Shown: positions 25,498-61,002 of the stretch, piece after piece
Position numbering within the stretch: position 1 is the first letter of the stretch
How the letters are laid out: the number at the start of each line of letters is the position of its first letter
Origin: Minisyncoccota bacterium
Lineage (GTDB): Bacteria > Patescibacteriota > Minisyncoccia > Phycocordibacterales > JBAZVT01
Direction of reading: 5' to 3'
NCBI GenBank assembly: GCA_041660745.1
Contig: JBAZVT010000003.1
Span: forward strand, 1,880 to 65,879
Length of the DNA stretch: 64,000 nt
The notes under the pieces: model-generated
What the model saw: only the letters and a program-made list of their open reading frames with translations
Told to the model about the DNA's origin: nothing
The model's database searches: none
Translations under genes and position numbers: made by a program

Positions 25498-25653
25498 TTA
25501 CAAGCTGAATGTGGTGCCGAGGAAATATGGCCAAAGGATAATGGCGAGTACTCCTTTCCAGAAGGCGAGGTGAAGAAAGCCTATGGTGAAAAGCCATGCT
25601 CCTACCCATAATAACCCCGCACAACCACCTTGATTGACGTTTATTTTTTGCAT
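25498..25653 (-). CDS. putative small (51 aa) two-TM proteolipid (Pmp3/YqaE-like?)
   Basis: MQKINVNQGGCAGLLWVGAWLFTIGFLHLAFWKGVLAIILWPYFLGTTFSL; inner part of ORF 25498..25800; weak call. Confidence 0.3.
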   Translation of the reverse strand: MQKINVNQGGCAGLLWVGAWLFTIGFLHLAFWKGVLAIILWPYFLGTTFSL

Positions 25654-25724
25654 GGTTTCAGTGTATAATTTTTTTATGTGAAATGAGGGAAGAGTTTTAT
25701 TGCTATGGTAGGATGAGATAAGTA

Positions 25725-25763
25725 TAAAAAATCCGTCGGGAACCACTTGGTGGTTCCCGACGG
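25725..25763 (-). terminator. rho-independent terminator downstream of the purH fragment (minus strand)
   Basis: ccgtcgggaaccac-ttg-gtggttcccgacgg perfect 14-bp stem, followed on the minus strand by a T-run. Confidence 0.75.
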
Positions 25764-25792
25764 GGTATTGGCTGTATGCCGAGATAGGGGGG

Positions 25793-26392
25793 TTACCCAT
25801 GCTTGACTTGCGGAGTGAGGAATCTTTGCCCGCTCGCTTTTTTCTGACGCATCCACTTCGTGATCATCCGGTCGTAGTCCGAGGTAGCTGCAAAGACCTT
25901 GATCACCAACCTCTCGCGCTGGTCTTCCGAGATAGCGCCGGTTACAGTCAGTGATGCAACCACCCACTCATAATCGGTAGGATCAATGACCGGGATTGTC
26001 GAGATCCCGTTCTTGGACGCTGCGCGGATGAGCGAGGGGCCGCCGATATCAATCTCCTCAATGTCAGGTTTGTTCTTGAAGTCGTACAGATTGACCACGA
26101 CGAGATCAATCAGGTCGATGTGGTGCTCGACGAGCGCCGCAAGGTGTGCGGGAATGGCTCGTGCGGCGAGTATGCCGCCGAAGATGTTTGGATGGAGTGT
26201 CTTGACACGGCCGTCCAGCATTTCGGGAAAGCCCGTGACCTGCTCAATCGGAGTTACCTCGATGCCGACTGCCCGCAGTGCTTTCGCCGTCCCGCCGGTA
26301 GAGATGAACTCCCAACCTAGGGTGGCGAGCGGAAGAAGTTTTTCCAACCCACTCTTGTCCGTAACCGACACCAGTGCTCTTGGCATTGCCAT
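25793..26392 (-). pseudogene. purH: purH N-terminal fragment: MGS-like/IMP cyclohydrolase domain only (199 aa), AICAR transformylase domain absent; GC-rich, SD-bearing
   Basis: ALVSVTDKSG...STGGTAKAL...GFPEMLDGRVKTLHPNIFGGIL...VVVNLYDFK...IDIGGPSLIRAASKN matches PurH residues about 1-195; the ORF stops where bifunctional PurH continues. About 55% GC, AAGGAG SD 6 nt upstream. Confidence 0.7.
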
Positions 26393-26479
26393 GAGAACTC
26401 CTTTTTAGGATTTTCTGCCACTGAAAGCCGTGGCCGCTTAACCGTTCTGAATGTAAGACTACGTATTTAATTTTTTATG

Positions 26480-27529
26480 TCAAGATTTTGTACTCGTCCA
26501 CCACATATGAGACTCTGACGCTGGTAATGTAGACACAATATACCTCAAAGGAGATACAAGACCAAGCGACCAATGAGGACGCCTAGTGTTGTACCAAAGT
26601 AACCAATTAATGAGAGCTTCATTAAAAGCATCAATGTCATGAGCTAAAAGTTTTCTGTTTCTGTTAACAAAAGCTTCCACAACAGTTCGGTTGAATCGTT
26701 CAACTTCAGCGTTCATTTTTGGCGATCTTGGATATGTGTGAAAATGAACGATGTTGTTCTTTTCAAGCAGAACGTCAAAGTGGTCAGCAAACTCACTACC
26801 ATTGTCTGTTTGCACATGCGTAACAGGAAGTGGTGCAACATGTTTAAACTTCATCATGAAGTCAGCAGATGCTTTTGATGAATGAGAAGTATACGCATAT
26901 GCAAAAGCAAATTTTGATTCGCAATCAATACCAGTGAGCAAATATCTTTTAATACCATCGGTGAAGCGGATGACCGAATCTGCTTTAACTAGTCCTCCTT
27001 CGTGACCTTTAGAACGCAGTTTCTTGCGTTTAACTCTGATTTTCTCTCGAAAGGTATCTGATTTTGCATAGTATGAAAGTTTCGTATATTTTGGAAGTTT
27101 TCCTTGTTTCTTGAGATCATTTAACATTCGACCGACAGTAGATGCGGAGAGATCGGCAACCTTGTCTTCTTTCATGAGTACCGCCAGTTTGTCTTTGGAA
27201 AGTCTTGGATCATTCTGGCGTTCCTTGAGAATGAAATCTTCTACAACTTTTGGGATGACACGTTTTCTTCTTTGTTTAGGAGCAGTACTTTTTTTGTTGA
27301 GAAACTCCAGTTTTCCCATACCATCTCGAAGTTCTTTTTGCCAGCGAAAAAGAGTTGGTCTTGAAATGCCAAAGGCTTCTTTAGTGGCAGTTGTTCCATA
27401 CTTCTCCCAAAACGCTAATATCCTGCACCTTTCTTTTGCGGTTTCGCTAATCATATACTTGAAGCGTATCACACGCTCCCAAGTACTAATGAAGCCCTTT
27501 GTTCCTCTAAATTTATTGAAAATGCGCAT
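26480..27529 (-). CDS. IS481-family transposase (HTH + rve integrase core, DDE)
   Basis: N-terminal HTH; TGIDCESKFAFAYAY...HVQTDNGSEFADHF...YPRSPKMNAEVERFNRT integrase-core motifs. Confidence 0.85.
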   Translation of the reverse strand: MRIFNKFRGTKGFISTWERVIRFKYMISETAKERCRILAFWEKYGTTATKEAFGISRPTLFRWQKELRDGMGKLEFLNKKSTAPKQRRKRVIPKVVEDFILKERQNDPRLSKDKLAVLMKEDKVADLSASTVGRMLNDLKKQGKLPKYTKLSYYAKSDTFREKIRVKRKKLRSKGHEGGLVKADSVIRFTDGIKRYLLTGIDCESKFAFAYAYTSHSSKASADFMMKFKHVAPLPVTHVQTDNGSEFADHFDVLLEKNNIVHFHTYPRSPKMNAEVERFNRTVVEAFVNRNRKLLAHDIDAFNEALINWLLWYNTRRPHWSLGLVSPLRYIVSTLPASESHMWWTSTKS

Positions 27530-27670: not shown

Positions 27671-29047
27671 ATGAGAATTCTATTCATCTCAAACGACCTT
27701 ATAGCTGGAAATCTCGCCTATCGCCTCAAACAAGAAGGTCATGATGTTAAGTTGTTCGTTGAAGAACCCCTCAGTAAAGAATGCTTCTCTGGATTAGTAG
27801 AAAAAATCGAAGATTGGAAAAAGGAACTTGATTGGGTTGGAAAAGACGGGTTGATTGTTTTTGATGACGCAGGATACGGTGAAATGCAAGAAAAGCTTCG
27901 TAACGATGGCTATACTGTATTTGGCGGTTGCTATGTTGGCGACAAACTTGAAACAGAAAGAGAGTACGGCCAAGCAATCTTCAAAGAATACGGCCTCAAG
28001 ACAGCTCCCCTCAAAAACTTTTCTTCTGTCCAAGATGCAATTGCATATGTAAAGAAAAATGGTGGGTCCTGGGTTATCAAACAAAACAACCACAACTTCA
28101 AACATCTCAGCTACGTGGGTAAATTTGAGGACGGAAGAGATATTGTTAACGTTCTAGAAAACTACGAACTACGCAACGGAGAGATAGACAAAATTACTCT
28201 GCATAAAAAGATTGAAGGCGTGGAAATAGGAGTGGGTAGATATTTTAATGGAACAGACTGGGTAGGGCCAATAGAATATAATATAGAACATACGAAACTA
28301 TTCCCTGGCTGTATTGGACCGACAACGAGCGAAATGGGAACTCTTGCTTGGTATGACGATGATGAATCAGGCAAACTTTTTAAAGAAAATTTAAATCTTC
28401 TCAAGCCATTCCTGCAACATATAGGCTATCGAGGTGATTTTGAAGTCAATTTTATAGTTAACGAGACGGGTGCATATCCACTGGAAGCAACCGCGCGTCT
28501 CGGCACCCCCATCATTCATTTGCATGATGAGATACACGAGAGTCCATGGGGAGAATTTTTATATGCCATCGCCCGTGGTGAACAATATGATTTAAAATAC
28601 AAGAAAGGATTTGGTATTGTCGTTGTTATTGCCACTCCCCCATTCCCATACTCAGAACGTGCTTACAATAGACTTTCAAACAACAACTCATACCGCTACA
28701 ACATATATTTTGATCACGAGATGAGCGCAGAAGAAATGAGCCATATTCATTTTGAAGAGGTGGCTGTGCGTGCTACTGATCCAAAACAACTCTATGTTGC
28801 AGACAGCCGAGGTAATGTTCTCTATGTTACTGGTATGGGACAAACAATCCAGGAAGCACGGGATATCACCTACGAAAAAATAAAACCGATTGTTATTCCT
28901 AAAATGTTCTACAGAAACGATATCGGAGTCGAATTTGAAAAAAATAGTCTTGGAAAACTTAAGGAATGGGGCTACATAGCCGACGGAGAAAAAAGTGAGG
29001 TAGCAGAAATGAACACAATTAGTGAGAAAACGATCGTAGGAATATAA
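27671..29047 (+). CDS. ATP-grasp enzyme of the phosphoribosylamine-glycine ligase (PurD) family, divergent N-domain
   Basis: Collinear with PurD: ...QAIFKEYGLKTAPLKNFSSVQDAIAYVKKNGGSWVIKQNN (A-domain), YRGDFEVNFIVNETGAYPLEATARLGTP (compare FNCRFGDPE), GFGIVVVIATPPFP. Lacks the canonical GNGGREHAL N-terminal motif. Confidence 0.65.
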   Translation: MRILFISNDLIAGNLAYRLKQEGHDVKLFVEEPLSKECFSGLVEKIEDWKKELDWVGKDGLIVFDDAGYGEMQEKLRNDGYTVFGGCYVGDKLETEREYGQAIFKEYGLKTAPLKNFSSVQDAIAYVKKNGGSWVIKQNNHNFKHLSYVGKFEDGRDIVNVLENYELRNGEIDKITLHKKIEGVEIGVGRYFNGTDWVGPIEYNIEHTKLFPGCIGPTTSEMGTLAWYDDDESGKLFKENLNLLKPFLQHIGYRGDFEVNFIVNETGAYPLEATARLGTPIIHLHDEIHESPWGEFLYAIARGEQYDLKYKKGFGIVVVIATPPFPYSERAYNRLSNNNSYRYNIYFDHEMSAEEMSHIHFEEVAVRATDPKQLYVADSRGNVLYVTGMGQTIQEARDITYEKIKPIVIPKMFYRNDIGVEFEKNSLGKLKEWGYIADGEKSEVAEMNTISEKTIVGI

Positions 29048-37361: not shown

Positions 37362-37519
37362 TTAAAATTCGATATATCAAAAAACAAACCTAATAATTAC
37401 ACGGAAATACACACATCTCGCCCATCGCGAGTAGTATATAATTCCATGTAACAGGGTAAAAAACAAAAAATCTTTCTGTGACGTATCACAGAAGTGGATC
37501 TCAAATTTCCTAATAGAAA

Positions 37520-40895
<3,376 letters not shown>

Positions 40896-41221
40896 TTCCC
40901 ATTAGGAAATTTAAGAACCACAATATATTTTTTGTTTTTGTTTTACCCTGTTACATAGAATCATCTACATAACAAGTTACTTCTACATTTTACCTGCGTA
41001 TCTCCAGCTTCGAAAAGACCATATAAAATGGTTGCTGGGATACAATGAACAAATCTTATCCCGATGTGAATCGAGAATCAGCAAATGTTATTTTTCAAGG
41101 TATCGATCGTTCGGAAATAAAAAACCGCTTTTTGAGGCGGGGGTGGACTACACAAGAATACTTGGTCGTCTAACTCCGCTTTAAAATGTGGTTAGTGATC
41201 TGCATATCTGTAATGGGTATT

Positions 41222-41567: not shown

Positions 41568-42251
41568 TTATCTATTTGAAATCTCCTCGCGAGTTTTTTC
41601 AATAAAACGCGCTGCGGCCTGTTGGCCACCAAGACCAAAGGAGAGACCAAAGGCGAGAGCAACAGCAACCACAACACCAGTGAAGAGTGTCTGGATAAGT
41701 GAAGTTGCAATACCAAGTTGAACGAGAGCCATAAGAATCGCAAAGATCCAAATTGTCCAACGAGAAACCGTACCGATAAATCTTGCAGACTTTACACCAG
41801 CAGCTGTTGCTGAACCGGTAATCAATCTACTAACAATATCAGCAAAGACTGCACCGGCCACAAGGATGATTGCAGCAATTATTACCTGTGGCAAAAAGCC
41901 GACAACAAGCTGAGTCAGGATTCCTTTTACTTGCGAGAGACCAAGCACATCCACAGCAGCAATAAGGAAAGCGATTATGATAAACCACTTTACTACCCCA
42001 CCAATAAATGCACTTGAGTTCAATCTGAACCCGCCACGTGCAAGAACTTTTTCTAAGTTTGCTCTGCGAAGAACATCATCAAGCTTAATAACTGCGACAA
42101 GGCGAGCGATTGCTGAACCCACAAAAATCGCAACTACCCAGCCAATAAGAATAATAAGAATCGCTACGACAACTACTGGGACAAATCCTGCAACTCCAAA
42201 CCAGAGATTTTGGAATGAACCGAGTAAAACTTCTTTCCACGTTATTAACAT
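41568..42251 (-). CDS. integral membrane protein with internal repeat of a conserved TM-helix motif (MscS-associated TM_helix-like?)
   Basis: Two similar hydrophobic segments (FGVAGFVPVVVVAILIILIGWVVAIF and GGVVKWFIIIAFLIAAVDVLGL...); function not assignable. Confidence 0.4.
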   Translation of the reverse strand: MLITWKEVLLGSFQNLWFGVAGFVPVVVVAILIILIGWVVAIFVGSAIARLVAVIKLDDVLRRANLEKVLARGGFRLNSSAFIGGVVKWFIIIAFLIAAVDVLGLSQVKGILTQLVVGFLPQVIIAAIILVAGAVFADIVSRLITGSATAAGVKSARFIGTVSRWTIWIFAILMALVQLGIATSLIQTLFTGVVVAVALAFGLSFGLGGQQAAARFIEKTREEISNR

Positions 42252-42362
42252 TGTTCGTGATTAATTATTACTAGTAATGAACCCCTTTATTATAGCATTT
42301 ATGAAGATGGTGGGTAGTCCTTTCACCATGCTCCCACAAGGTGAAAGCCTCGTGAAGTAGCT

Positions 42363-42409
42363 GGGAATAAAAATAGGGCGTTCTCAAAGAACGCCCTATT
42401 TTTATTCCC
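42363..42409 (-). terminator. 21-bp perfect-stem terminator downstream of the 42435-43064 gene
   Basis: gggaataaaaatagggcgttc-tcaaa-gaacgccctatttttattccc. Confidence 0.75.
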
Positions 42410-42434
42410 ACCTTCTACCTCCATTCTTCTTAAT

Positions 42435-43064
42435 TTATATAATGTTCAATTTATTGAAAACTTTCTCGTGTGGGTAATCAAGAATATCTCTCACAAGCTT
42501 GTCACAGACACCAAGACGGTACAGAAAATCGTCTGTCTCAAAAACAGAATATACAAGCTCCTTCCCCACTTCAGATTCCAATCCTTTCACCGCATTATCA
42601 AGAGCTGTTTTTTTAATGTTGTCGCCAACAATAAGAAGATCAACACGAGCATCCCAGTACTGATTGAACACTCCCGATGTTACTACCATTTTTATTTTTC
42701 CTGCCTTCATGAATCGCTCTGCGAGATCCCCTTTTGTAACTGGCATCATACTAATAAGAAATGTCTGAAGCGGTAAGAGATACTGACATTTATCATTAAG
42801 CTTCCAACCATGAAATTTCTTTGAAACAAAAACTTTCTTTTTTCCCTTTTTTACCTCGACAGATTTATGCACATCGCGCTTTATAAGCATACCGATACTT
42901 TCTAGGAGAGCGATTTCTTTCCGTGTTTCAGCTTTGCCAGTTTTAGAACGAGCCATGACATCATCGAGATCAAAAACCATCTTCTGATTAAACAAGAAGA
43001 GACGCATGATTTTTACTTTTGCGGCGCTTCCAAACAATTTCTGTAATGTGTCCATAGTATTCAT
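42435..43064 (-). CDS. hypothetical protein, N-terminal winged-helix-like segment + unknown C-terminal domain
   Basis: AAKVKIMRLFLFNQKMVFDLDDVMARSKTGKAETRKEIALLESIGMLIKR resembles an ArsR/MarR-type wHTH; the rest has no recognisable similarity. Confidence 0.4.
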   Translation of the reverse strand: MNTMDTLQKLFGSAAKVKIMRLFLFNQKMVFDLDDVMARSKTGKAETRKEIALLESIGMLIKRDVHKSVEVKKGKKKVFVSKKFHGWKLNDKCQYLLPLQTFLISMMPVTKGDLAERFMKAGKIKMVVTSGVFNQYWDARVDLLIVGDNIKKTALDNAVKGLESEVGKELVYSVFETDDFLYRLGVCDKLVRDILDYPHEKVFNKLNII

Positions 43065-43115
43065 AATGGGTAATAGTATACCACACTCTTTTACAGTTTT
43101 TTAGTACCAATATTT

Positions 43116-43180
43116 CTGTCATTGCGAGCGACTTCAGCAGCTGGTACCCGAGAGCGGTATACTCGCGTGGCAATCCAGTC
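43116..43180 (-). repeat. repeat family B copy 1 (unit ...CTGGATTGC...CTCGCAATGACAG, inverted)
   Basis: ctgtcattgcgag...caatccagtc is the reverse complement of the CTGGATTGC-(variable stem-loop)-CTCGCAATGACAG unit seen at 53815, 54360, 55771 and 61593. Confidence 0.7.
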
Positions 43181-43312
43181 TAATACCCACACCCCCAGTC
43201 GCATGCGAGGATGTACACAAAAAGCGGTATAGAAAAATTTTTAAACCAATTTCTTTTTCTAACAAAATTCGAGCTTTTGTACGCATGCAACGGGGTTCCG
43301 TTGAAATAAAAT

Positions 43313-43338
43313 AAAAACCCGCCTTTCGGCGGGTTTTT
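43313..43338 (-). terminator. rho-independent terminator of rplL
   Basis: aaaaacccgcc-tttc-ggcgggttttt overlapping the stop-codon region; T-run on the minus strand. Confidence 0.85.
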
Positions 43339-43341
43339 ATT

Positions 43342-43737
43342 TTATTTCAACTCCACTTTTGCACCTGCATCCTCAAGAGCTTTCTTGAGAGCCTCTGCAT
43401 CTTCTTTCTTCATACCTTCCTTGAGCATCTTTGGAGCTGCATCAACGAGGTCTTTTGCTTCCTTGAGACCAAGAGCAAGAGCTTCTTTTACAACCTTAAT
43501 AACTGCAATCTTCTGAGCACCTGCATCTGCGAGGTTAACACTGAAAATTGTTTTCTCTTCTGCCGCACCCGCTGCTGCTGGAGCTGCGACTGCTGTTGCT
43601 GCTGCAGAAACACCAAACTTAACTTCAAAGAATTTTACAAGCTCGTTGAGATCAAGTACTGACATGTTCTCAATTGCTGTTACGATATCCTTGAATTTTG
43701 CTGGAGTCTCAACAACTGTATTCTGTGCGTTGTCCAT
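43342..43737 (-). CDS. rplL: 50S ribosomal protein L7/L12
   Basis: Ala-rich hinge [15 protein letters not shown]-terminal [23 protein letters not shown]...AGAKVELK. Confidence 0.96.
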
Positions 43738-43807
43738 AATAATTCGTAATAATTAATAAATATTAAGCCTGCTTTTTCCTAAACCCTTCGGGTCGGACGA
43801 ACCTCAT

Positions 43808-44299
43808 TTATGAGGTTTTAGTCTTTGCGATAGCATCGAGAGCGATAACAAGTCCCTGTATTGGAGAATTGATAACGTTGACGAACATACCATAAAGAGT
43901 TTTCTGAGAAGGAATGAGGGCGATAGCCATCATCTCTTCTTTGTTCATAAACTTACCTTCGAAGACACCTCCGAGGATTTGAATTTTCTTGTCGAGCTTC
44001 TTCTGGAAGTCATAGACTTCGCGAGCTGCATCGGTAAGATCTTTACTGAATGCCATTCCAAGTTCGCCTGGGAGTTCTGGCAACGTACCAGTGACACCAC
44101 CATCAACAAGAGCTTTCTTAGTGATAGTTTTCTTAGCAATCTTGTACCCTATTCCCAAGCCCTTGAGAGTCTTGCGAATAATAGTAGCGTCAGCAACTGT
44201 CAATCCATGGAAGTTGAAGAGAACGATAGAACCAGAGGTTTTTACCGCATCACTTACTTCTGCATAAATTTCCTTTTTCTTTTCTTTTGAGATAGCCAT
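43808..44299 (-). CDS. rplJ: 50S ribosomal protein L10
   Basis: MAISKEKKKEIYAEVSDAVK...; directly upstream of rplL. Confidence 0.95.
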   Translation of the reverse strand: MAISKEKKKEIYAEVSDAVKTSGSIVLFNFHGLTVADATIIRKTLKGLGIGYKIAKKTITKKALVDGGVTGTLPELPGELGMAFSKDLTDAAREVYDFQKKLDKKIQILGGVFEGKFMNKEEMMAIALIPSQKTLYGMFVNVINSPIQGLVIALDAIAKTKTS

Positions 44300-44660
44300 T
44301 TGGAATTTTTTACGAACGTAGTGAGTTTAAAATTCCCACCCTGTTAAATCCCCTGAGTACAGGGAATCATAGAAATCTGATTTCTATGACATTTAACAGG
44401 GTTGTGAAAATATATTCGCTAGGCTCGTTATTTTCTACAAAATAAATCGACCCGTAAGGGCCTGATAAAAGTGAGATCTCACATATCAATAGATATGTGA
44501 GTAAACCTCGATAGGCTATTCCAGCAAAGCTGGACGCCCGTCCACCGAAGGTGGATTAGGGACCTGTATTAAAGCGGTTTTCCGCTGCCTATTGTCTTTG
44601 GCCTTACGAGGTACATATTTACATAAAATAGTTCACTTGTAAAGCAAGTACCCGCAGAAC
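44300..44660 (-). promoter_or_regulatory. rplJ (L10) 5' leader, likely autoregulatory L10-leader structure
   Basis: About 360-nt structured non-coding region upstream of rplJ with multiple hairpins; position is canonical for the L10(L12)4-binding leader. Includes the family E palindrome at 44337-44403. Confidence 0.45.
44337..44403. repeat. repeat family E copy 1 (CACCCTGTTAAATCC ... ATTTAACAGGGTT with variable hairpin core)
   Basis: Same 11-bp terminal inverted repeat ccctgttaaat/atttaacaggg as at 60946-61002; inner sequence differs but is itself a hairpin. Confidence 0.7.
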
Positions 44661-44707
44661 AATCTTTTTAAAAAATATATAATTTTCTACTAAAACCCTC
44701 CATTATA

Positions 44708-44741
44708 AAAAGGGTGCGGTCCGCAGCGGACCGCACCCTTT
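44708..44741. terminator. GC-rich terminator hairpin bounding GC-island 3 (bidirectional)
   Basis: aaagggtgcggtccgc-agc-ggaccgcaccctt followed by TGTTTT (+) and preceded by TTTTTATAATG (-). Confidence 0.75.
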
Positions 44742-44770
44742 GTTTTCCAACCGAGCGACACAGGTGGTCG

Positions 44771-45031
44771 CTACTCTTCTTGACCGTTTTCAGGGCAGTC
44801 CGGTTCCAACTCACAAGAGAAGTAGTACCCGAGACAGACTCCAAAGAGAATGAAACCAATCGGTCCCCCAACAACAGTAAGAGCCCTGCCCCAGAAGTCC
44901 GATTCCCTTGGCTCAAGATGACTCCGGAAAAGTCCGAAATCCTGCCAAAGAAATATCAAAACGCTCCAGACAGAACAGCAGGCCCAAAGACATGGAAGCC
45001 ACTGATAAGGATTGTGAAAAAAGGCACTCAT
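44771..45031 (-). CDS. small two-TM membrane protein (86 aa) on GC-rich island, canonical SD
   Basis: MSAFFHNPYQWLPCLWACCSVWSVLIFLWQDFGLF...ALTVVGGPIGFILFGVCLGYYFS; AGGAG 9 nt upstream of the ATG at 45031; the ORF-track entry 44771..45271 is an upstream over-extension. Confidence 0.5.
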   Translation of the reverse strand: MSAFFHNPYQWLPCLWACCSVWSVLIFLWQDFGLFRSHLEPRESDFWGRALTVVGGPIGFILFGVCLGYYFSCELEPDCPENGQEE

Positions 45032-45077
45032 ACAGCATCTCCTTTCCCGAAAGTTCCTACACAGAAGGCAAGTACGA

Positions 45078-45365
45078 TTACTCCTGCATTGGTTTGTGCA
45101 GTATTCTTTCACGCCTCGCAAGCGCCCCCGCAAAATCGTGAGCACATATTGAGATGGGTCCGAAGAGGACCCTGAATATGTACAGACGCCACGATGCCCA
45201 CGAGAATTTCCCCCGAGAAAGATCTGGGAAGAAAACGAACGCAGCGCCGATTGAGTAGCGCAGCCACGCAAGAACCGCGAGGCCTACAACAACAGCAACG
45301 ATCCCGACGGGTACAACCAGACATTCCCACATAAGAATCTCCTTCCAAAAAATAAACATCCACAT
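45078..45365 (-). CDS. small membrane protein (95 aa) on GC-rich island, SD-bearing
   Basis: MWMFIFWKEILMWECLVVPVGIVAVVVGLAVLAWLRYSIGAAFVFF...; GGATGAGGAAAG upstream of the ATG at 45365; the track entry 45078..45458 starts at TTG. Confidence 0.45.
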   Translation of the reverse strand: MWMFIFWKEILMWECLVVPVGIVAVVVGLAVLAWLRYSIGAAFVFFPDLSRGKFSWASWRLYIFRVLFGPISICAHDFAGALARRERILHKPMQE

Positions 45366-45407
45366 TCTTTCCTCATCCTTTATACCACACCTCATATCTA
45401 ATATCAA

Positions 45408-45439
45408 AAAGACCCGGGCATGTGTATGCCCGGGTCTTT
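45408..45439 (-). terminator. terminator hairpin inside GC-island 3
   Basis: aaagacccgggcat-gtgt-atgcccgggtcttt; T-run on the minus strand. Confidence 0.7.
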
Positions 45440-45464
45440 GTCCTAATGATTTGGACAAACTACT

Positions 45465-45704
45465 TCACCCCTGAAACATGTTCGCAAGAGCAATGCGCTG
45501 ACCGACACCGACGTATGGCTTCTGTTCAGAAGCAGGGAAACAACCTGCTAGCGGTGTTCCATACCCCTCGGGACCCCACAACGAACCAGGCTTGTGATAC
45601 CCACGTCCACACGATGCGACAGCCGCCAAGTCGCAAGGAGGCAGGCCACTCACATCTGCCCACGTCAGATCGCTCACCTCAGCAGTAACGTAACCGCCAC
45701 GCAT
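45465..45704 (-). CDS. hypothetical 79-aa protein on GC-rich island, GGAGG SD 5 nt upstream
   Basis: MRGGYVTAEVSDLTWADVSGLPPCDLAAVASCGRGYHKPGSLWGPEGYG...; no similarity recognised. Confidence 0.4.
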   Translation of the reverse strand: MRGGYVTAEVSDLTWADVSGLPPCDLAAVASCGRGYHKPGSLWGPEGYGTPLAGCFPASEQKPYVGVGQRIALANMFQG

Positions 45705-45783
45705 AGTGCCTCCATAGGTAAAAGAAAAGTTTATTCCGCGAACGCTCTATCACCAGAGTACCATATTGGAAGCATCGTGGGTA

Positions 45784-48700
45784 TTATTCTTCTTTTACCT
45801 CGTGTCCACCTTCAACAAAAATAATTTCCGGCACAACAACTTCTTCCGTTTGTAATTCTAATACCTCTAAAGGTTTATTTAGGGCATCATTTTTTTCCTC
45901 AACAACACCCTCCCCGCTTTCTAAATTATCGGGTTCTTTGTATTCATCGGCAATAGGTGTGGGAGTCTCTCCTTCTGTTTTTTCTTCAGAACTCACAGGG
46001 ACCTCCTCTTCCGTTTTTTCTAAAGTAGTGCTTGCTATTGATGCAGATTCCGTTTCTTCTAACATGGCCATTTGCATAGCACCGAAGACACCATCTTCGT
46101 GTATTTCAATAGCCTCAGAAAGAAGTGCAACAGTCACTGGATCTTCTGCATATGCGAGCTTAGGATTTCCTGACGGCACAGCATCAAACCATGGTGAAAA
46201 ATCGACAAGACCAAAGACTGAATCCCCCACTGCAAGATTATTTTTTATCTCTTCAAATGGCCCCGTCGCGTCACCCCACCAATTTTCTTGTGCGAGGATA
46301 GTATTTTCACCCGTAGAAAGAATGCCGTTTGAACGATTTCCAAATATTTGACTGCGAGCAACCGAAGCACTGTCCCCAAAGAAAAGAATCCCATATTCAT
46401 TACGGGCAAGTGTACTTGAAGCAATCACAACTTTCCCATCATCAAATATCCCAACACCCTCAGCTTCATTATCTGAAATATTTGAATTTGTAATCGTCAT
46501 TAAACCCGATGCCAAACTATTTCCAAATATTTCTACACCTGCACCACAATAAGAAATATCTGCATCAGAAATTTCTGCGGAAGAATTGTCGTATACATAC
46601 ACCCCTACCCCGTCCACACGGGAAATATTTGGACGTGTGACTTGGGCGGTGCTATTGGCATATATAGACAAAGCATCTCCAGAAATATTTGAAAGAGCGA
46701 GGTCAGAAAAAATCCCATGAGAATCCATGTACAGATTAATTCCGCCCGTAGTATTTTCAGCGCGCACGTCAGAAAGAGTGACCTCGGCCCCGTCGTATGC
46801 ATTCACAATGGAATCACCGCCAGAAATACTAGTATCCTGTATCGCAAGCGTACACTGTCTACAGGTGACGGTATCAGTATATGGAGAGCCTGTGATTGTG
46901 CTGTTTGAAATAACCACTGAAGAACTTGCCTGTGCACTTATTCCATCCTCAAGTTTTTTTATTTTTGTATATCCAAATACATTTCCTACAGACCCTGAAT
47001 AAAACTCCGTTGCACCAGTGCCATATTCAGAGAGTTCCCCATTATCAGAAGACCTCAAATCTCCCCCGACAGAATCATCTGTAAATTCAGTAAAAATAAC
47101 TGGATTGTCTGATGTGCCAAGCGACTTGATAGTACCCTCCACAGAAAGTCCTGTTGCATAACTCCCCCAACTTCCATTATCGTAAAATTTTACAATCGTC
47201 CCAGGCAAGAGTGTCAGCGTTGTTCCTGAAGCGACGTGTATATTACCTTCAAACACATACGGACTTTCTTCTGGAGTGAGTATCATATCTTCTGTAAAAG
47301 TTTCCCCTCTATACCACACAGTCGAAACACTGTTACGTGACTTTGGCGTGCCTAGGATATATCCATCTTTTGAATCTTTTCCATTTGCAATTTCTCCGGT
47401 GTTCGCATTCCAGTTTTCATAATCAAATCCCCCAACATACGGCGAGACCCGTTCCATGGTTCTTTTGTCACCAGTATCATTACTCCCCCCTGGCCAACTT
47501 CCTTCAACCAACACTGTCGTGTCTATGGTTGTAGATCCGTAATTTAGATTCAATATAACACCACTATTGTTGAGAGCTCCGACATATACAAGGTCTGCTT
47601 GGATATCTGAAACAGAAGTATTGTCTGTTCTCTCCAAGAGAAAGTAGCCATGGGCAGGAATTGTTTTTGATAATGAAATACGCGGTGTTCCAGTAGCTTT
47701 ACTATTAACAAGAGCCCAGCCCGAAAGATCTATATCATACGGAGTCGTGTTATACAGCTCCAACCATTCATCATTAGCATCAGCCTCTGTGCCCATCCAA
47801 GCAACTTCATTAATAACTACAGGCATCGTCGCAACAGACACACTCACTGCAACAGGCTCAGAATCACCACCTGCATTGTGTGCTGAGACAGTAAATTGTA
47901 AGTCACTTCTATCATCAACAACCACGCTGAGCCCAGAGTATGTGGTTGTAGAAACAAGACCGTTTAAATTAAATGTAAAATATTCAGCAATACCAAGAGA
48001 TTCATCTGCTTGCCAGGTCAACGTCAGGGTTGTTGTTGCAACTAGACAGCCAGTCGAGACGAGAGACTGCGAACACTCAGCGACTGAAAAATTTGTAACT
48101 CCAGGAAGCTCAGGAAGAAACGGTGACGGGATTACAGGAACCTCCGGTTCTCCGGGAGATGCTGTGTGGCGGGATCTATTTGACCCAGAATAAATAACCT
48201 GTGTTGGGTTATAAAAAGGCGCAAACACCCCAGTTGGGAAATTTGCGTCAGCTACTTTTGATTGATCTATAAAGCTCGGTGTAGAATTAAGTTCCAATCC
48301 CTCACCCTCATCAAGGACTGTGGTGATACTATTAGTAGTCTTTGACTGTAAAAAAGTAATTGATTTTATTGCAGACTGTGCAAAAGTCTGAGCACTTTCA
48401 CCTGTCTTTTTCGCAACAACCGTTGCTGTTGTCTTTCCGGTATATCCAAGAACGGAAGCGATATTCCCACCCGTTTGCACTGTCCACAACGTTCCATAAT
48501 TAGCACCCCTCCAGGCGCTTGTCGCAACTTTTGCCACAGGTGCACCTATGTAATCTGAGAAAAGATACGCAAAGCCAATTGGTATAAGTTGAAAAATATT
48601 TTTCTTCGCAAGACCCTCAGCAAGCTCTTTATCCTTCAGCGCCTCTTCTACTTGCTCCTGCTTTTGCTCTGCAAGATATTCCTCGCGCGCCGCTTTCGCC

Positions 48701-49575
48701 TCTTTCAAAAACAGCTCTATCACTCCCGCCGACGCCAGCACAGCTTGTTTTGAAAGACGATCAAAGTAGGAAGAGAGGACGGAGTCAGAAAAATAATATG
48801 TCCTTACACCATCCAAACTTATTTTTGTATTTAAAATTTCATATTTTTGGTTATCCAAACCGTCAACACCATAAATAACTGACCCGTCAGAATTTTCAAT
48901 TTCTGGATTTTCAAAATAATTTTCTGAATTATCTATTGTATCTGCACTAAAAAAATTCTTATTTGAGTAGTCTGCAAGATATTCAAAATATTCTGAGATG
49001 TCTGAAAAAGTTATTGGTTCATATCTCCGGTCAACATATTCCTTTGCAGTGCCCGTAAGCGCACTACCATCTTTCCTGCGAGCCCAATTCTCATAAGGAC
49101 TATCTCCTGTATATAACCCGGAAGCACCGTCTCCTTTATGTGGATCATTTCTTGTATGTTCAGGAACAGTCATATCCTGAATAAGATGCAGTACATGACC
49201 TAGCGACAAGAACGCTTTATTATCATTCCCCTCAGCATAATATTGGATCGCTTTTGGCCAAGAAAATTCATTAGCAACAAGCACCCCATCCGTACCCCAA
49301 TCTTTTGCTGAGCGATAGTTATTAAAACCGATTTCTCCTCTCGGATCATAAAAATGATTGAGGGCTCGAATCCCAGCATCCTCATCGACTGATCCCTGAA
49401 TAATTAAACGTTTTTCTGAATCATGTATTTTATCCGTTATGGACTGTAAATTATAAAACTCTATCCCCTGCTCGGTTATGCCAGGGTGAGTTGTTCCAGA
49501 ATGGTATGCACTCACAAAAAATATAGCCCCAAGAAATAAAGGCCCAAAAAACATTCTAAAAAATATCTTTTTCAT
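45784..49575 (-). CDS. 1263-aa secreted multidomain protein: zinc-dependent phospholipase C-like domain + Ig/Fn3-like + lamin-tail domain (LTD) + right-handed beta-helix repeats
   Basis: Signal peptide. N-terminus ALNHFYDPRGEIG...FLSLGHVLHLIQDMTVPEH resembles the Zn-PLC/alpha-toxin H-F-W/Y-D-P and H-x(2)-GD-x(2)-P-x-H motifs. VVINEVAWMGTEADANDEWLELYNTTPYDIDLSGWALV is a lamin-tail-domain signature. Repetitive NISGD/SNISDN pectate-lyase-like beta-helix repeats. Acidic C-terminal tail. Confidence 0.7.
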   Translation of the reverse strand: MKKIFFRMFFGPLFLGAIFFVSAYHSGTTHPGITEQGIEFYNLQSITDKIHDSEKRLIIQGSVDEDAGIRALNHFYDPRGEIGFNNYRSAKDWGTDGVLVANEFSWPKAIQYYAEGNDNKAFLSLGHVLHLIQDMTVPEHTRNDPHKGDGASGLYTGDSPYENWARRKDGSALTGTAKEYVDRRYEPITFSDISEYFEYLADYSNKNFFSADTIDNSENYFENPEIENSDGSVIYGVDGLDNQKYEILNTKISLDGVRTYYFSDSVLSSYFDRLSKQAVLASAGVIELFLKEAKAAREEYLAEQKQEQVEEALKDKELAEGLAKKNIFQLIPIGFAYLFSDYIGAPVAKVATSAWRGANYGTLWTVQTGGNIASVLGYTGKTTATVVAKKTGESAQTFAQSAIKSITFLQSKTTNSITTVLDEGEGLELNSTPSFIDQSKVADANFPTGVFAPFYNPTQVIYSGSNRSRHTASPGEPEVPVIPSPFLPELPGVTNFSVAECSQSLVSTGCLVATTTLTLTWQADESLGIAEYFTFNLNGLVSTTTYSGLSVVVDDRSDLQFTVSAHNAGGDSEPVAVSVSVATMPVVINEVAWMGTEADANDEWLELYNTTPYDIDLSGWALVNSKATGTPRISLSKTIPAHGYFLLERTDNTSVSDIQADLVYVGALNNSGVILNLNYGSTTIDTTVLVEGSWPGGSNDTGDKRTMERVSPYVGGFDYENWNANTGEIANGKDSKDGYILGTPKSRNSVSTVWYRGETFTEDMILTPEESPYVFEGNIHVASGTTLTLLPGTIVKFYDNGSWGSYATGLSVEGTIKSLGTSDNPVIFTEFTDDSVGGDLRSSDNGELSEYGTGATEFYSGSVGNVFGYTKIKKLEDGISAQASSSVVISNSTITGSPYTDTVTCRQCTLAIQDTSISGGDSIVNAYDGAEVTLSDVRAENTTGGINLYMDSHGIFSDLALSNISGDALSIYANSTAQVTRPNISRVDGVGVYVYDNSSAEISDADISYCGAGVEIFGNSLASGLMTITNSNISDNEAEGVGIFDDGKVVIASSTLARNEYGILFFGDSASVARSQIFGNRSNGILSTGENTILAQENWWGDATGPFEEIKNNLAVGDSVFGLVDFSPWFDAVPSGNPKLAYAEDPVTVALLSEAIEIHEDGVFGAMQMAMLEETESASIASTTLEKTEEEVPVSSEEKTEGETPTPIADEYKEPDNLESGEGVVEEKNDALNKPLEVLELQTEEVVVPEIIFVEGGHEVKEE

Positions 49576-49576
49576 G

Positions 49577-50185
49577 TTAGTTTTCTATTTTCCAAATATT
49601 TTTATAAGGATTTAACACGAATCCCACAGACCAATTTTCCTTACTACCTGCAGGAGTTGTAAAAGAGTATTCCCTCCCAGCTATTACACTAGAAGAAGTA
49701 GCTGCTTCTGTTGTCACATGAACGCTAGTAAAAAAGCACACTTCCTTGATGATGCCGGGGCCATTAGAACCTATATATTTTTCACACTTCTTAAATCCAG
49801 AATCTCTGACAACAGTAAGATAATTAAACATGAAACTCTTTTTTTCTTCTGACTCAAAGACACTCCTCAGACTCTCCTTTTGTTTTTCTTGCATTTCGAC
49901 AACATAATATTTGCTTGCCTCTTCAAGATTATTCTTCTTAAGAGCTGCAATAAACATATCCAACGTCCCCTCAGGCGTAGTACTCCCCATTGTGTCTTTC
50001 TTGTATGCCTCCTCCAGTTTCTGTCTTGGCTCTACAACCAATCTATTATAAATCGCTTCCTGACGTTGGTTCTCCATCCACAACGTAATCTTCTCACCGT
50101 ACACACCTAGAAAATAAAAAAGAATAAAAAGAGCAACAATAACAACCCCGCCAACAATGAGAGATTTTTTCAAAAAAGGAGACAT
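49577..50185 (-). CDS. hypothetical membrane-anchored protein, start adjacent to the stop of the 1263-aa gene (likely co-operonic)
   Basis: N-terminal TM (LIVGGVVIVALFILFYFLGV); no recognisable domain. Confidence 0.5.
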   Translation of the reverse strand: MSPFLKKSLIVGGVVIVALFILFYFLGVYGEKITLWMENQRQEAIYNRLVVEPRQKLEEAYKKDTMGSTTPEGTLDMFIAALKKNNLEEASKYYVVEMQEKQKESLRSVFESEEKKSFMFNYLTVVRDSGFKKCEKYIGSNGPGIIKEVCFFTSVHVTTEAATSSSVIAGREYSFTTPAGSKENWSVGFVLNPYKNIWKIEN

Positions 50186-50342
50186 TTTACGTAATATTTA
50201 ATTTAGAAATAATAATTACCAAAAACTTTTTTATTGACACACCCCACAAACCATTTTCTATATTGTATCACCCGCCCCACCAAAAATCTTCATTCCCTTT
50301 TAATAAAAACTGTGGATAACTTTTTCTTCCTTAGGACTCTTC

Positions 50343-50382
50343 CATAGGACCGCCCTATGTTTTCACATAGGGCGGTCCTATG
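50343..50382. repeat. REP-like hairpin D1 flanking the RAYT gene (CATAGGACCGCCCTATG-ttttca-CATAGGGCGGTCCTATG)
   Basis: 17-bp perfect stem; ends 4 nt from the RAYT stop codon; identical stem to D2 at 51105-51144. Confidence 0.85.
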
Positions 50383-50386
50383 GAAA

Positions 50387-51082
50387 TTATTTTGGCTCAC
50401 CTCTTAAATCTCCAAGATCCCTGAACTCAAGCCAGTCAGAAACAATACTTTCAAAAGATGGCGCTGGAGACGAAAAGTAATCCGGAAACTCATCAGCTTT
50501 TAGTATTTTTGATTCAGGTCTTAAATTAAAGTTAATTTCCACATATTCCTTGTAACTTGAATATTTATAATTATCTAAGAAATTCTCAGCTTTTTGCATG
50601 TCCACAACCCCCCTCTCTTTCCACGCAGGATCAATAATCTTTACCGGATTTAAATGTATATATGAAACTAAATACTTTAAATATTCGTCGGTATTTGCAT
50701 GAACTGCTTTAAATCGGCTCTCAAAAAGACTTCCGGTCCGTGTATTTTTTCTATTGAAATACATTGAGTATGACGTAAGCAATTTACCCAAAAATTTACT
50801 TATACCACCTTCTTCTGTTTCTTTTAAAAGTATGTGGAAATGATTTGGCATCAAACAGTATGCGCCGACAGAAACAATACTATCTTTCTTTTGAAAATTA
50901 AAAATATCCTTAAATTCCTTCTCAATCTCCCTAAAAGTTATATTTTGAGATGTATTATAAACAAATAAACCTTTAATAAAACGTTGATAATCTCTTTCGT
51001 CCTGAAAAATAAAGCGTTTATCAACGCCTCGAGCATAAATGTGATAGTACTCTCCTACACTAAATTCGATTTTTCTTTGCAT
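50387..51082 (-). CDS. REP-associated tyrosine transposase (RAYT) / IS200-like Y1 HUH transposase (COG1943)
   Basis: HUH motif LMPNHFHILL; C-terminal SRFKAVHANTDEYLKYLVSYIHLNPVK matches the RAYT catalytic-Tyr region (compare RFWEH...DYIYINPVK). Confidence 0.85.
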   Translation of the reverse strand: MQRKIEFSVGEYYHIYARGVDKRFIFQDERDYQRFIKGLFVYNTSQNITFREIEKEFKDIFNFQKKDSIVSVGAYCLMPNHFHILLKETEEGGISKFLGKLLTSYSMYFNRKNTRTGSLFESRFKAVHANTDEYLKYLVSYIHLNPVKIIDPAWKERGVVDMQKAENFLDNYKYSSYKEYVEINFNLRPESKILKADEFPDYFSSPAPSFESIVSDWLEFRDLGDLRGEPK

Positions 51083-51104
51083 TTTTATAAGAATAGAGGT
51101 TTTA

Positions 51105-51144
51105 CATAGGACCGCCCTATGTTTTTACATAGGGCGGTCCTATG
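51105..51144. repeat. REP-like hairpin D2 immediately upstream of the RAYT start
   Basis: cataggaccgccctatg-ttttta-catagggcggtcctatg; same stem as D1. Confidence 0.85.
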
Positions 51145-51412
51145 TTCTATCTATTGCTATTGTCTAAAGCATTAATGACAGAAGATGGGGTTGGGTTGGA
51201 AGCACGAAGATCGTTGCCGGAAACATAGCTGTTGTAAGAGAGGATGCCGGTGACGATGAGGCTTGCAAGAAGGATCGCGATAAAACTGAGGAAAAAATTG
51301 AAGAATGTTTTATCGAAGCAGTCTGACATTGTAATCGTATTATAACAAAGGCCTTCAGATAAGGGAAAAATGTTGCTCATAATCTGTGGATAACTCAAGA
51401 ATATATAAAATG

Positions 51413-51482
51413 CATACGACCGCCCTATGTATGTCACGGGAAAATTCCCAACTCCCTACCCTAGGGATGTCCTATGTATACG
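51413..51482. repeat. degenerate third copy (D3) of the RAYT-associated REP with a 30-nt insertion in the loop
   Basis: catacgaccgccctatgta ... cctagggatgtcctatgtatacg. Confidence 0.6.
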
Positions 51483-53891: not shown

Positions 53892-54250
53892 ATGTCTTAA
53901 TTCAAAGTCTTACTGCGCTATTTAATTGTCAAAGGTCTATCGTATTATCCACCCTCTCTGTAACATCTTACGAACACCGCGTGTATTCGTTACATGCCTT
54001 CATTAACTTTCTATCTGTAATGTGGACGTACCATGAAGATACATCTACTGGATAATTATATTCCTTATACAGGTACACTGCAAAGGATACTGTGGATAAC
54101 TTCTAAAAAATCCCGCACGGGACACATCTAGAAGTGGGTATAAGTATAGTCTTTTTATGAAGAAAGTCAATGAAGAAAAGGATTAAAAAGTAATTATGTG
54201 GCTAAAAGCATACGTATTTAGTATGAGTATAAGGAGGTAAAAGAATGCTA

Positions 54251-60933: not shown

Positions 60934-60945
60934 AAGAAAAATCGG

Positions 60946-61002
60946 CACCCTGTTAAATCCGCTTCGCGGTATCTGCTTTCCAAGCAGATATTTAACAGGG
61001 TT
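60946..61002. repeat. repeat family E copy 2, directly adjacent to family A copy 3
   Basis: caccctgttaaatcc-gcttcgcggtatctgctttccaagcagat-atttaacagggtt. Confidence 0.7.

Follow-up and report, generated by a model that had tools for sequence, protein, structure and literature searches.

A small GC-rich islet with three small genes, probably of foreign origin, beside rplJ in a Candidatus Paceibacterota genome

A stretch of about 1.1 kb in a Candidatus Paceibacterota (CPR) genome is best explained as horizontally acquired DNA that carries three very small genes and comes from a donor with a higher GC content and genes led by Shine-Dalgarno (SD) sites; we put the probability of this reading at about 0.6. 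The fragment would have settled in the spacer between a large secreted-protein gene and the promoter and leader of rplJ. It is an ordinary small genomic islet: it deviates from its surroundings in composition, has a compact anatomy of ORFs and terminators, bears expression signals foreign to the host, is absent from relatives, and encodes products for which no homologues were found. Positions below refer to the window, the whole 64,000-nt stretch that was analyzed, and the elements of the region are as follows.

44653-45783, no strand assigned: the whole strain-specific islet, which separates the large-gene stop codon (45784) from the conserved rplJ promoter
45465-45704, minus strand: ORF C, 79 aa; SD GGAGG at 45709-45713, 4 nt before the ATG
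45408-45439, minus strand: terminator T1, a 14-bp perfect GC-rich stem with a 4-nt loop, -25.5 kcal/mol, z -6.2
45379-45407, minus strand: candidate sigma-70-type promoter of the B-A unit, TTGATA (45407-45402), a 17-nt spacer and TATAAA (45384-45379)
45078-45365, minus strand: ORF B, 95 aa; SD GAGGA, 4 nt before the ATG
44771-45031, minus strand: ORF A, 86 aa; SD AAGGAG at 45039-45044, 7 nt before the ATG
44708-44741, minus strand: terminator T2, a 15-16-bp perfect GC-rich palindrome, -36.3 kcal/mol, z -5.75, followed by UUUUUAU
about 44620-44652, minus strand: rplJ promoter (TTTACA...TAAATA), native, outside the islet
44431-44619, minus strand: L10 leader, native, outside the islet; Rfam L10_leader at 31.6 bits (E 0.0078), which falls under the Rfam gathering score of 44

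The edge of the islet on the rplJ side is given by alignment breakpoints, where homology to relatives restarts at TTGCTTTACAAG (about 44652). The rplJ promoter and L10 leader beyond this edge are conserved with the related loci L001 and L010 and have strong folding z-scores. On the other side lies a native gene (45784-49575) of the secreted-protein type, with Zn-PLC-like, LTD and beta-helix features. The GC-richness described in the initial annotation holds, at 51% rather than the 52% or so given there: 44700-45780 has 51.0% GC, compared to a window mean of 41.1% (sd 3.1%, windows of 1081 nt), and 44708-45704 has 51.7%. At the 1.08-kb scale, the region is the GC maximum of the window and exceeds the 23S rRNA. 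It has no paralogy with the other GC-rich islands or the rest of the window, and only trivial tandem repeats.

All three minus-strand ORFs proposed earlier are present at their positions, do not overlap, and are each preceded by an SD site; the longer ORF-track calls of 166 aa and 126 aa, which run from TTG starts, are over-extended, as had been suspected. Together, the ORFs fill the intervals left by the terminators. In dinucleotide shuffles of the island, three non-overlapping same-strand ATG ORFs of at least 75 aa appeared in 3 of 3000 cases, and the same layout with a 5-mer SD on each ORF in none of 3000. The ORF-plus-SD layout is, thus, far beyond chance. Hydrophobic ORFs arise more readily by chance on the minus strand, because it is rich in U.

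When an AT-rich CPR genome has a GC-rich stretch, an RNA gene is usually the reason, and the island is about as enriched in GC as the rRNA in the window. A structured non-coding RNA gene or element, in which the ORFs are incidental, would also fit the 16 stop-free segments of at least 40 aa in the island, which leave many frames open simultaneously, and one internal imperfect hairpin (45137-45188, z -2.7 to -4.7). However, a scan of the whole window with Rfam 15 at the gathering threshold finds no family in the island. In its vicinity, the one genuine match is to the L10 leader, which lies beyond its edge. A relaxed scan of 44200-46000 (E up to 10) adds, within the island, sub-threshold matches only, centred on both terminator hairpins, the best of them at 31.9 bits against a gathering score of 90; a weak mir-6 match in the island reaches 20.6 bits against a gathering score of 58. 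ARAGORN detects no tRNA or tmRNA, and the window as a whole contains no tRNA. The folding z stays close to 0 (+0.9 to -1.9) in most of ORF B and throughout the bodies of ORFs A and C; strongly negative values are confined to the terminators, the internal hairpin and the L10 leader, which reaches -5 to -10. Given also a layout far beyond chance, the RNA reading is disfavoured and we consider it highly improbable. The initial preference for coding ORFs, in two units delimited by terminators, over a structured RNA is borne out by the negative Rfam scan, the near-zero z of the ORF bodies and the absence of the layout among 3000 shuffles.

The clearest sign of foreign origin comes from the SD sites. 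Among the 50 long ORFs (at least 150 aa) in the window, 43 lack an SD match of even 4 nt. Matches of at least 6 nt at the first ATG of such ORFs are restricted to two GC-rich islands, 18418-18945 and 25793-26392, and the SD sites of the small ORFs A, B and C are comparable to those of these islands. Since the native genes are SD-less and strong SD sites are confined to three GC-rich islands, we regard the islet as horizontally acquired DNA. The lack of SD sites in host genes, which marks the islet as foreign, had been overlooked in the initial annotation. A second GC-rich island (island 2) contains a truncated purH (199 aa, 56% GC; the MGS domain plus the start of AICARFT) that adjoins an rve-type (IS481-type) transposase, which indicates that foreign fragments do land in this genome. 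If the host ribosome does not use SD sites, the islet genes may be poorly translated here. No 16S rRNA gene, sought for its anti-SD tail, is present among the called genes of a 5.7-kb Logan contig.

Comparison with related loci supports an insertion between the rplJ leader/promoter and the large PLC-LTD gene, as originally suggested. In locus L010, where RAYT, p202, the large gene and rplJ follow one another in this order, the spacer between the last two measures just 300 nt or so and contains no island. The corresponding junction in L024 carries a different insert, rsmE and another gene. A tblastn search with the products of ORFs A, B and C across 59 related loci gave no match. Close relatives (L001-L009) lack the entire block 44648-51170, and the relatives that have a comparable junction are distant (L10 proteins 53-61% identical); the time of acquisition is, as a result, poorly bounded. 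An insertion of the whole 6.5-kb block (44648-51170) in one event was considered and rejected. The p202 and large genes adjoin rplJ in both L010 and L024 and are, therefore, native.

The abrupt change in GC content, the origin of the sequence in a metagenome-assembled genome, and its occurrence in a single sample are what would be expected if reads of a higher-GC organism had been chimerically joined into a Paceibacterota contig during assembly or binning. Against this, an independent Logan assembly (SRR18595301) contains a 4875-nt contig, spanning the large gene, the island, rplJ-rplL and beyond, that is 100% identical over 41599-46473, both junctions included. Host sequence is in the correct syntenic order on both flanks, and two chimeric joins exactly 1.1 kb apart are unlikely. 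We therefore give an artefact very little weight.

No integrase, transposase, tRNA target or clear target-site duplication was found in the islet. The nearest transposase is a RAYT-like Y1 enzyme (50387-51082), 4.6 kb away. The only candidate flanking repeat is 10 nt long with one mismatch (45785-45794 and 44772-44781). Twenty repeat families of similar quality occur within the same 1.6 kb.

The product of ORF A is acidic, including its C-terminus, rich in Trp and Cys, and devoid of Lys. It contains two hydrophobic segments (residues 11–29 and 50–68) and is predicted to be a small membrane protein with a helical-hairpin topology. Gene callers disagree across 44714-45175. ORF A is called by JGI only, while Logan calls an antisense ORF of 153 aa (44714-45175) instead; a search for an NCBI record of ORF A was negative, and the NCBI locus tags run on consecutively, without a gap for it.

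ORF B encodes a small basic protein with one strong hydrophobic segment (residues 15–33, KD 2.89) and a charged C-terminus (...ALARRERILHKPMQE). The single-sequence AlphaFold2 model is a helical hairpin (helices 2–45 and 56–89, pLDDT 79.4). The second helix is amphipathic and lies under the 1.4 hydropathy cut-off that was applied, so the earlier description of two 2-TM proteins is secure for ORF A alone, ORF B having one clear TM segment. The model suggests that ORF B, too, encodes a small helical-hairpin membrane protein. Its start is variously placed: NCBI, JGI and Logan call a 105-aa ORF from 45395, a start without an SD, while the best SD (AAGGAG, 6-nt spacer) precedes an alternative in-frame ATG at 45332 that would give 84 aa. 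Codon-position periodicity is ambiguous for both A and B, each of which has fewer than 100 codons.

ORF C is present in the NCBI (WC757_01165), JGI and Logan annotations. Its codon positions show in-frame G1 and RNY periodicity; the third position has the lowest GC content, which is unusual for a GC-rich gene. The product is rich in Gly, Pro and Ala, slightly acidic, and without a hydrophobic segment. AlphaFold2 yields no fold (pLDDT 38.7), and this small soluble protein is probably disordered. Inspection of the sequence revealed neither a signal peptide nor a double-glycine leader, and the N-terminus does not fit LSxxELxxIxGG.

Both strong terminator hairpins reported previously were recovered at their positions, with folding energies near -25 (T1) and -36 kcal/mol (T2). 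The T1 hairpin is followed by UUUUUGAU; with an A-tract before the stem and a U-tract after it, T1 can act in both directions. There is no terminator between ORF C and the large gene, so transcription of the p202/large-gene operon upstream probably continues into ORF C and ends at T1. ORFs B and A probably start from a promoter of their own, for which TTGATA-17-TATAAA is a plausible sigma-70-type candidate, and would end at T2. This promoter was read by eye and was missed by the promoter scan, which demands a T at position 6 of the -10 hexamer. T2 might also shield the rplJ promoter and prevent read-through into the rplJ-rplL operon. T2 itself may not have been imported, but may instead be the large gene's own, native terminator. 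The transcription units of the islet are predictions from these signals.

Among 5.8 billion protein clusters, each of the three products is a singleton that matches only itself. Pfam, NCBIfam, PHROGs and PADLOC models gave nothing above noise for A, B or C, including no toxin, antitoxin or defence protein (PADLOC, Pfam, NCBIfam), and Pfam likewise gave nothing for ten alternative-frame segments of the island. At the DNA level, neither the island (blastn, phages and plasmids) nor the products A, B and C (tblastn, phages) gave a significant match. Neither 50,697 phage genomes nor IMG/VR contigs contain a match to the islet; no related loci were seen in viral contigs searched with A, B and C, or in metagenome contigs searched with B and C. 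Three lines of follow-up proposed in the initial annotation, namely product homologues (sought by profile and sequence methods other than HHpred), the cassette in other genomes, and a DNA-level match of the whole island, were all negative; its remark that no family is recognizable agrees with the profile, sequence and PDB searches of all three products. Sequence matches in the PDB are low-complexity noise from designed SAKe propellers. A HMMER search with ORF C in 1.84 billion representatives returned one non-self match (E 3e-6), a eukaryote-type protein of 4632 aa (P0010) built of near-identical DOMON repeats. It was rejected as a relative, as the score is summed over at least 10 repeats; a single repeat aligns with ORF C over 67 residues (28% identity, 26.6 bits), which cover a strand and a Pro/Ser linker.

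Since all three are singleton ORFans, A, B and C are best seen as accessory, envelope-associated cargo, like that of genomic islets and phage "morons". If they have any activity, it is most likely through insertion into the cytoplasmic membrane. The predicted segments suggest this location, and any function is likewise conjectural.

A less probable but serious alternative is that the DNA is foreign and inert, having entered, for example, by natural transformation and illegitimate recombination, so that its ORFs, SD sites and terminators are leftovers of the donor that are neither expressed nor selected and await decay. The singleton status of all three ORFs fits this alternative, as do the lack of SD use by native genes, the weak codon periodicity of A and B, the lack of a predicted fold for C, and the neighbouring GC-rich island with its demonstrably broken purH. 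However, each ORF still has an intact start, SD and stop, and the palindromes of both terminators are perfect, which points to recent arrival or to maintenance; ORF B is modelled confidently as a helical hairpin, and a plausible sigma-70-type promoter precedes the B-A unit.

The initial annotation had compared the cassette to toxin/immunity, holin-like or bacteriocin-immunity modules. Small-protein modules of these types are often ORFans in islets. As a special case of the acquired-cargo reading, a toxin/immunity, holin/antiholin or bacteriocin/immunity module, with C soluble or secreted and B and A in the membrane, would agree with this habit, with the size and topology of A and B, with the charged C-terminus of B, and with a tandem arrangement that has its own promoter and terminators. 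We regard it as unlikely: Pfam, NCBIfam, PHROGs and PADLOC provide no match; no endolysin, phage, C39/ABC transporter or regulator gene occurs in the islet or its called neighbours, and the ORFs and annotated genes between 43.3 and 54 kb include neither a transporter nor a C39 peptidase gene; ORF C has no signal peptide or double-glycine leader; and a strong terminator sets C apart from B-A. The proposed resemblance, thus, finds no family match, partner gene or leader behind it. More speculative still is the idea that all three SD-led islets were captured from a higher-GC host or a phage of that host, with the present one being a previously unseen small-membrane-protein module (e.g. toxin/immunity or exclusion) at the interface between epibiont and host. 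Such a module would stand beside the large secreted PLC-like/beta-helix protein.

Among known systems, phage morons are accessory genes that carry a promoter and a terminator of their own, are transcribed independently and deviate in GC content. The islet resembles them in its putative promoter, SD-led small genes, factor-independent terminator, deviant GC and small membrane proteins, but it has no surrounding prophage and no match in PHROGs, phage genomes or IMG/VR. Class II holins, bacteriocin-immunity proteins and small membrane toxins are similar in length (80-95 aa), in having 1-2 TM helices, and in the tandem arrangement of their genes; the charged C-terminal tail of ORF B is also shared with them, a feature that is not specific to holins. 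The likeness is one of size and topology only, as the islet lacks a family match, a partner endolysin, a bacteriocin, a transporter and a phage context. For holins in particular, neither Pfam nor PHROGs gave a match and no endolysin or phage gene is adjacent, the neighbours being ORF C, rplJ and the large beta-helix gene.

The closest parallel is with ORFan-rich genomic islets, which share an atypical composition, absence from the syntenic site of relatives, foreign expression signals and hypothetical genes without homologues; the host genome also holds other foreign pieces, one of them beside a transposase. The present islet differs in being very small (1.1 kb), in lacking an integrase, tRNA target, flanking repeats and mobility gene of its own, and in its position just upstream of a ribosomal-protein operon. 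Both genomic islands and horizontal transfer have been described in Patescibacteria (PMC12455944), where Hsiao et al. 2005 is cited for the novel gene pool of genomic islands.

These results are of value mainly for annotation. They extend the pool of islet ORFans by three singleton families of small proteins and correct gene models in the region, concerning the start of ORF B and the choice between ORF A and the antisense 153-aa call. If the products were shown to be made and to be active in the membrane, they would form a small new family in a group whose accessory functions are almost unknown. More generally, a GC-rich patch in an AT-rich CPR genome need not be an RNA gene, and in this lineage, whose own genes lack SD sites, an SD site together with raised GC content serves as an inexpensive internal sign that DNA was imported recently.

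Islet 3, the GC-rich stretch at 44700–45780, lies on an 80,824-nt contig of a metagenome-assembled genome of Candidatus Paceibacterota (CPR/Patescibacteria; NCBI locus tags WC757_*), and all genes flanking it are on the minus strand. Its GC content of 51.0%, against a window mean of 41.1% (sd 3.1%, windows of equal size), makes it the most GC-rich 1.08-kb stretch in the window, exceeding the 23S rRNA; the enrichment reported in the initial annotation thus stands, at a figure slightly below its approximately 52%. Gene order confirms the proposed position between the rplJ promoter/leader and the large PLC-LTD gene, and the three minus-strand ORFs with Shine-Dalgarno (SD) sites and the two strong terminator hairpins described there are all present.

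Features of islet 3 and its neighbors
43342–43737, minus strand: rplL, neighboring gene
43808–44299, minus strand: rplJ, neighboring gene
44431–44619, minus strand: L10-leader-like structured region (Rfam RF00557, 31.6 bits, E = 0.0078, below the gathering score of 44)
44708–44741, minus strand: terminator hairpin T2 (−36.3 kcal/mol, z −5.75)
44771–45031, minus strand: ORF A, 86 aa, SD AAGGAG 7 nt upstream
45078–45365, minus strand: ORF B, 95 aa, SD GAGGA 4 nt upstream
45408–45439, minus strand: terminator hairpin T1 (−25.5 kcal/mol, z −6.2)
45465–45704, minus strand: ORF C, 79 aa, SD GGAGG 4 nt upstream
45784–49575, minus strand: large gene, 1263 aa, with Beta_helix and LTD matches and a weak Zn-dependent PLC match

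The combination of ORFs and SD sites is real and beyond chance. Of 3000 shuffles of the island that kept its dinucleotide composition, 3 contained a set of three non-overlapping ATG ORFs (each at least 75 aa, all on one strand), and none contained such a set with an SD before every ORF. For ORF B, an alternative in-frame ATG at 45332 (84 aa) has a better-placed SD (AAGGAG, 6-nt spacer), while public annotations start at 45395 (105 aa), without an SD. Gene calls for ORF A conflict: JGI calls ORF A, whereas Logan places a 153-aa ORF antisense to it, with its start within T2 and no SD; no NCBI record of ORF A was found. Both hairpins are flanked by A- and U-tracts and fold as strong intrinsic terminators.

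A structured RNA gene was considered and rejected. Rfam 15 at the gathering threshold detects only 23S and 5S rRNA in the whole window and no family in the island, upholding the earlier preference for a coding interpretation. Under permissive settings, a scan of 44200–46000 additionally yields the L10 leader, below threshold, and noise that is almost entirely centered on the terminator hairpins; ARAGORN found nothing. Sliding-window folding z-scores are −5 to −10 in the leader and strongly negative at the terminators, but near 0 over ORF A, ORF C and the greater part of ORF B; the islet contains one imperfect internal hairpin (45137–45188) and no meaningful tandem repeats. An assembly artefact was likewise rejected, as an independent assembler gives the same sequence through the island: a 4875-nt contig of the Logan assembly of SRR18595301, spanning the large gene, island, rplJ, rplL and further, is 100% identical to 41599–46473.

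The three products are singletons, matching only themselves among 5.8 billion protein clusters, and have no match in Pfam, NCBIfam, PHROGs, PADLOC or PDB, in agreement with the earlier statement that no family is recognizable. The one further match of ORF C in a full HMMER search, to a giant protein of near-identical DOMON repeats, was a summation artefact. The DNA-level search that had been suggested gave no significant match among phage and plasmid records, nor did tblastn of A, B and C against phages; viral contigs (A, B and C) and metagenome contigs (B and C) yielded no related loci, and alternative frames of the islet had no match. Two segments of ORF A are hydrophobic, and its tail is acidic and Cys-rich. 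ORF B is modeled, without an alignment, as two long helices (2–45 and 56–89; mean pLDDT 79.4), with a single strong TM segment and a basic C-terminus; of the "two 2-TM proteins" proposed previously, only A is therefore secure. ORF C, rich in Gly, Pro and Ala, has no predicted fold (pLDDT 38.7) but shows the clearest in-frame G1/RNY periodicity of the three.

The suggested likeness to toxin/immunity, holin-like or bacteriocin-immunity modules is confined to size and topology, the other testable signs of membership having failed. A and B are best seen as predicted accessory small membrane proteins, and C as a small soluble peptide, carried as cargo of an acquired islet. At least one of the three is somewhat more probably than otherwise a functional gene in this host.

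In the close relatives (L001–L009, PRJEB14718), whose flanking genes are 80–87% identical at the nucleotide level, synteny holds on either side of a variable block. These genomes join a conserved 59-aa gene (window 51147–51326) nearly directly to the rplJ promoter/leader and so lack all of 44648–51170, a 6.5-kb block comprising a REP-associated tyrosine transposase (RAYT)-like gene, p202 (a neighbor of the large gene), the large beta-helix gene and the island. Insertion of this block as a single unit was rejected, since p202 and the large gene lie directly upstream of rplJ in two more distant relatives, L010 and L024; L010 also carries a RAYT-like gene. By this comparison p202 and the large gene are ancestral neighbors of rplJ, and the L001–L009 state is a deletion or replacement specific to that lineage, at a variable site preceding the rplJ operon. 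Only ∼300 nt, holding a palindrome, promoter and leader, separate the large gene stop from rplJ in L010, while rsmE and another gene fill this space in L024. As tblastn with A, B and C found no match in the 59 related loci, these junctions delimit the genome-specific DNA to ∼44653–45783, matching the original placement of the island.

The block's 231-aa IS200-like Y1 transposase (50387–51082, minus strand; Pfam Y1_Tnp, E = 4.7e-11) has the same ∼44-nt palindrome, CATAGGACCGCCCTATG-TTTT-CATAGGGCGGTCCTATG, on both flanks (50343–51144), resembling a RAYT with REP hairpins; a third, partial copy lies at 51405–51430, and close relatives have a different palindrome, CCTAGGCCGGGCCTAGG, at equivalent places. 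The minus strand carries the motif GTTATCCACAG, which includes a perfect DnaA-box-like TTATCCACA, in three exact copies (50310–50320, 51384–51394 and 54090–54100) and in six with at most one mismatch, versus 0.72 expected. Of the exact copies, two or more directly precede genes (p202 and the 59-aa gene), and one is shared with L001; the motif may serve as a promoter or regulator site particular to this lineage. Between the L10 leader, here expanded by 52 nt relative to L001, and the rplJ start codon is a ∼120-nt imperfect palindromic element (44305–44430; arms 44312–44349 and 44391–44428; core CACCCTGTTAAAT ... ATTTAACAGGGTT) with very strong folding (z −6 to −10). It is missing in L001 and L010, its core recurs as an inverted pair at 60946–61002 (region 60938–61002), and it may be a small MITE/REP-like mobile hairpin.

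Because the large gene is not followed by a terminator, its transcript probably reads through into ORF C, and would stop at T1. TTGATA-17-TATAAA (45407–45379), immediately past T1 on the minus strand, is a plausible candidate promoter for a B–A unit, which favors the 45332 start of ORF B. T2 would terminate this unit ∼55 nt short of the conserved rplJ promoter, insulating the ribosomal operon. The stop codons of the large gene and ORF A each fall within a copy of a 10-nt direct repeat, AAGAAGA(A/G)TA, the two copies lying 1013 nt apart. The repeat could mark a microhomology junction, and T2 would then be the original terminator of the large gene; repeats of similar quality are common in the region, and it is thus only a lead.

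Elsewhere in the window, the 23S rRNA match (37507–40906, minus strand) is 3400 nt long against a 2925-nt model, indicating ∼475 nt of insertions, with no group I or II intron family in it at the gathering threshold; the 64 kb contain no 16S rRNA gene or tRNA. Cumulative GC skew climbs steadily up to ∼29 kb and declines steadily beyond it (switch at ∼28500–29000); long plus-strand genes are among the ORFs examined before 29 kb, and nearly all of those examined past ∼35 kb lie on the minus strand. The change could be a replication-related switch (terminus- or origin-like) or simply convergent gene blocks.

Initiation signals bear on the origin of islet 3. The window has 50 ORFs of 150 aa or longer, and in 43 of them the first ATG is preceded by no SD match, not even one of 4 nt. 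At such starts, matches of at least 6 nt occur only in two other GC-rich islands:

18418–18945, plus strand: island 1, 175-aa orphan (singleton) ORF, SD AAGGAGGT, 51% GC, N-terminal hydrophobic segment
25793–26392: island 2 (25498–27529), 199-aa ORF, SD AAGGAG, 56% GC

The first ORF, which has no Pfam match, carries the window's best SD and shares the foreign signature of islet 3. The second is a truncated purH (MGS domain plus the first 60 residues of AICARFT) adjoining an rve-type, IS481-like transposase (26480–27529), in an island that also holds a 100-aa hydrophobic ORF; island 2 is a gene fragment of foreign origin in a CPR genome. With most long ORFs lacking SD sites and the strong ones confined to GC-rich islands, raised GC together with an SD marks imported DNA, a pattern that islet 3 fits. 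Its products are also compositionally foreign, ORF A having no lysine against Lys-rich native proteins. Genomic islands and horizontal transfer, plausibly via competence pili, are documented in Patescibacteria (PMC12455944). We consider the DNA of islet 3 to be foreign with a probability of roughly 0.85. The islet is real and was correctly located and largely correctly described from the outset. In kind it is ordinary: a small islet of ORFans, strain-specific, within a metagenome-assembled genome. The one useful generalization is that, within a CPR genome that is SD-less, raised GC combined with an SD serves to mark imported DNA.
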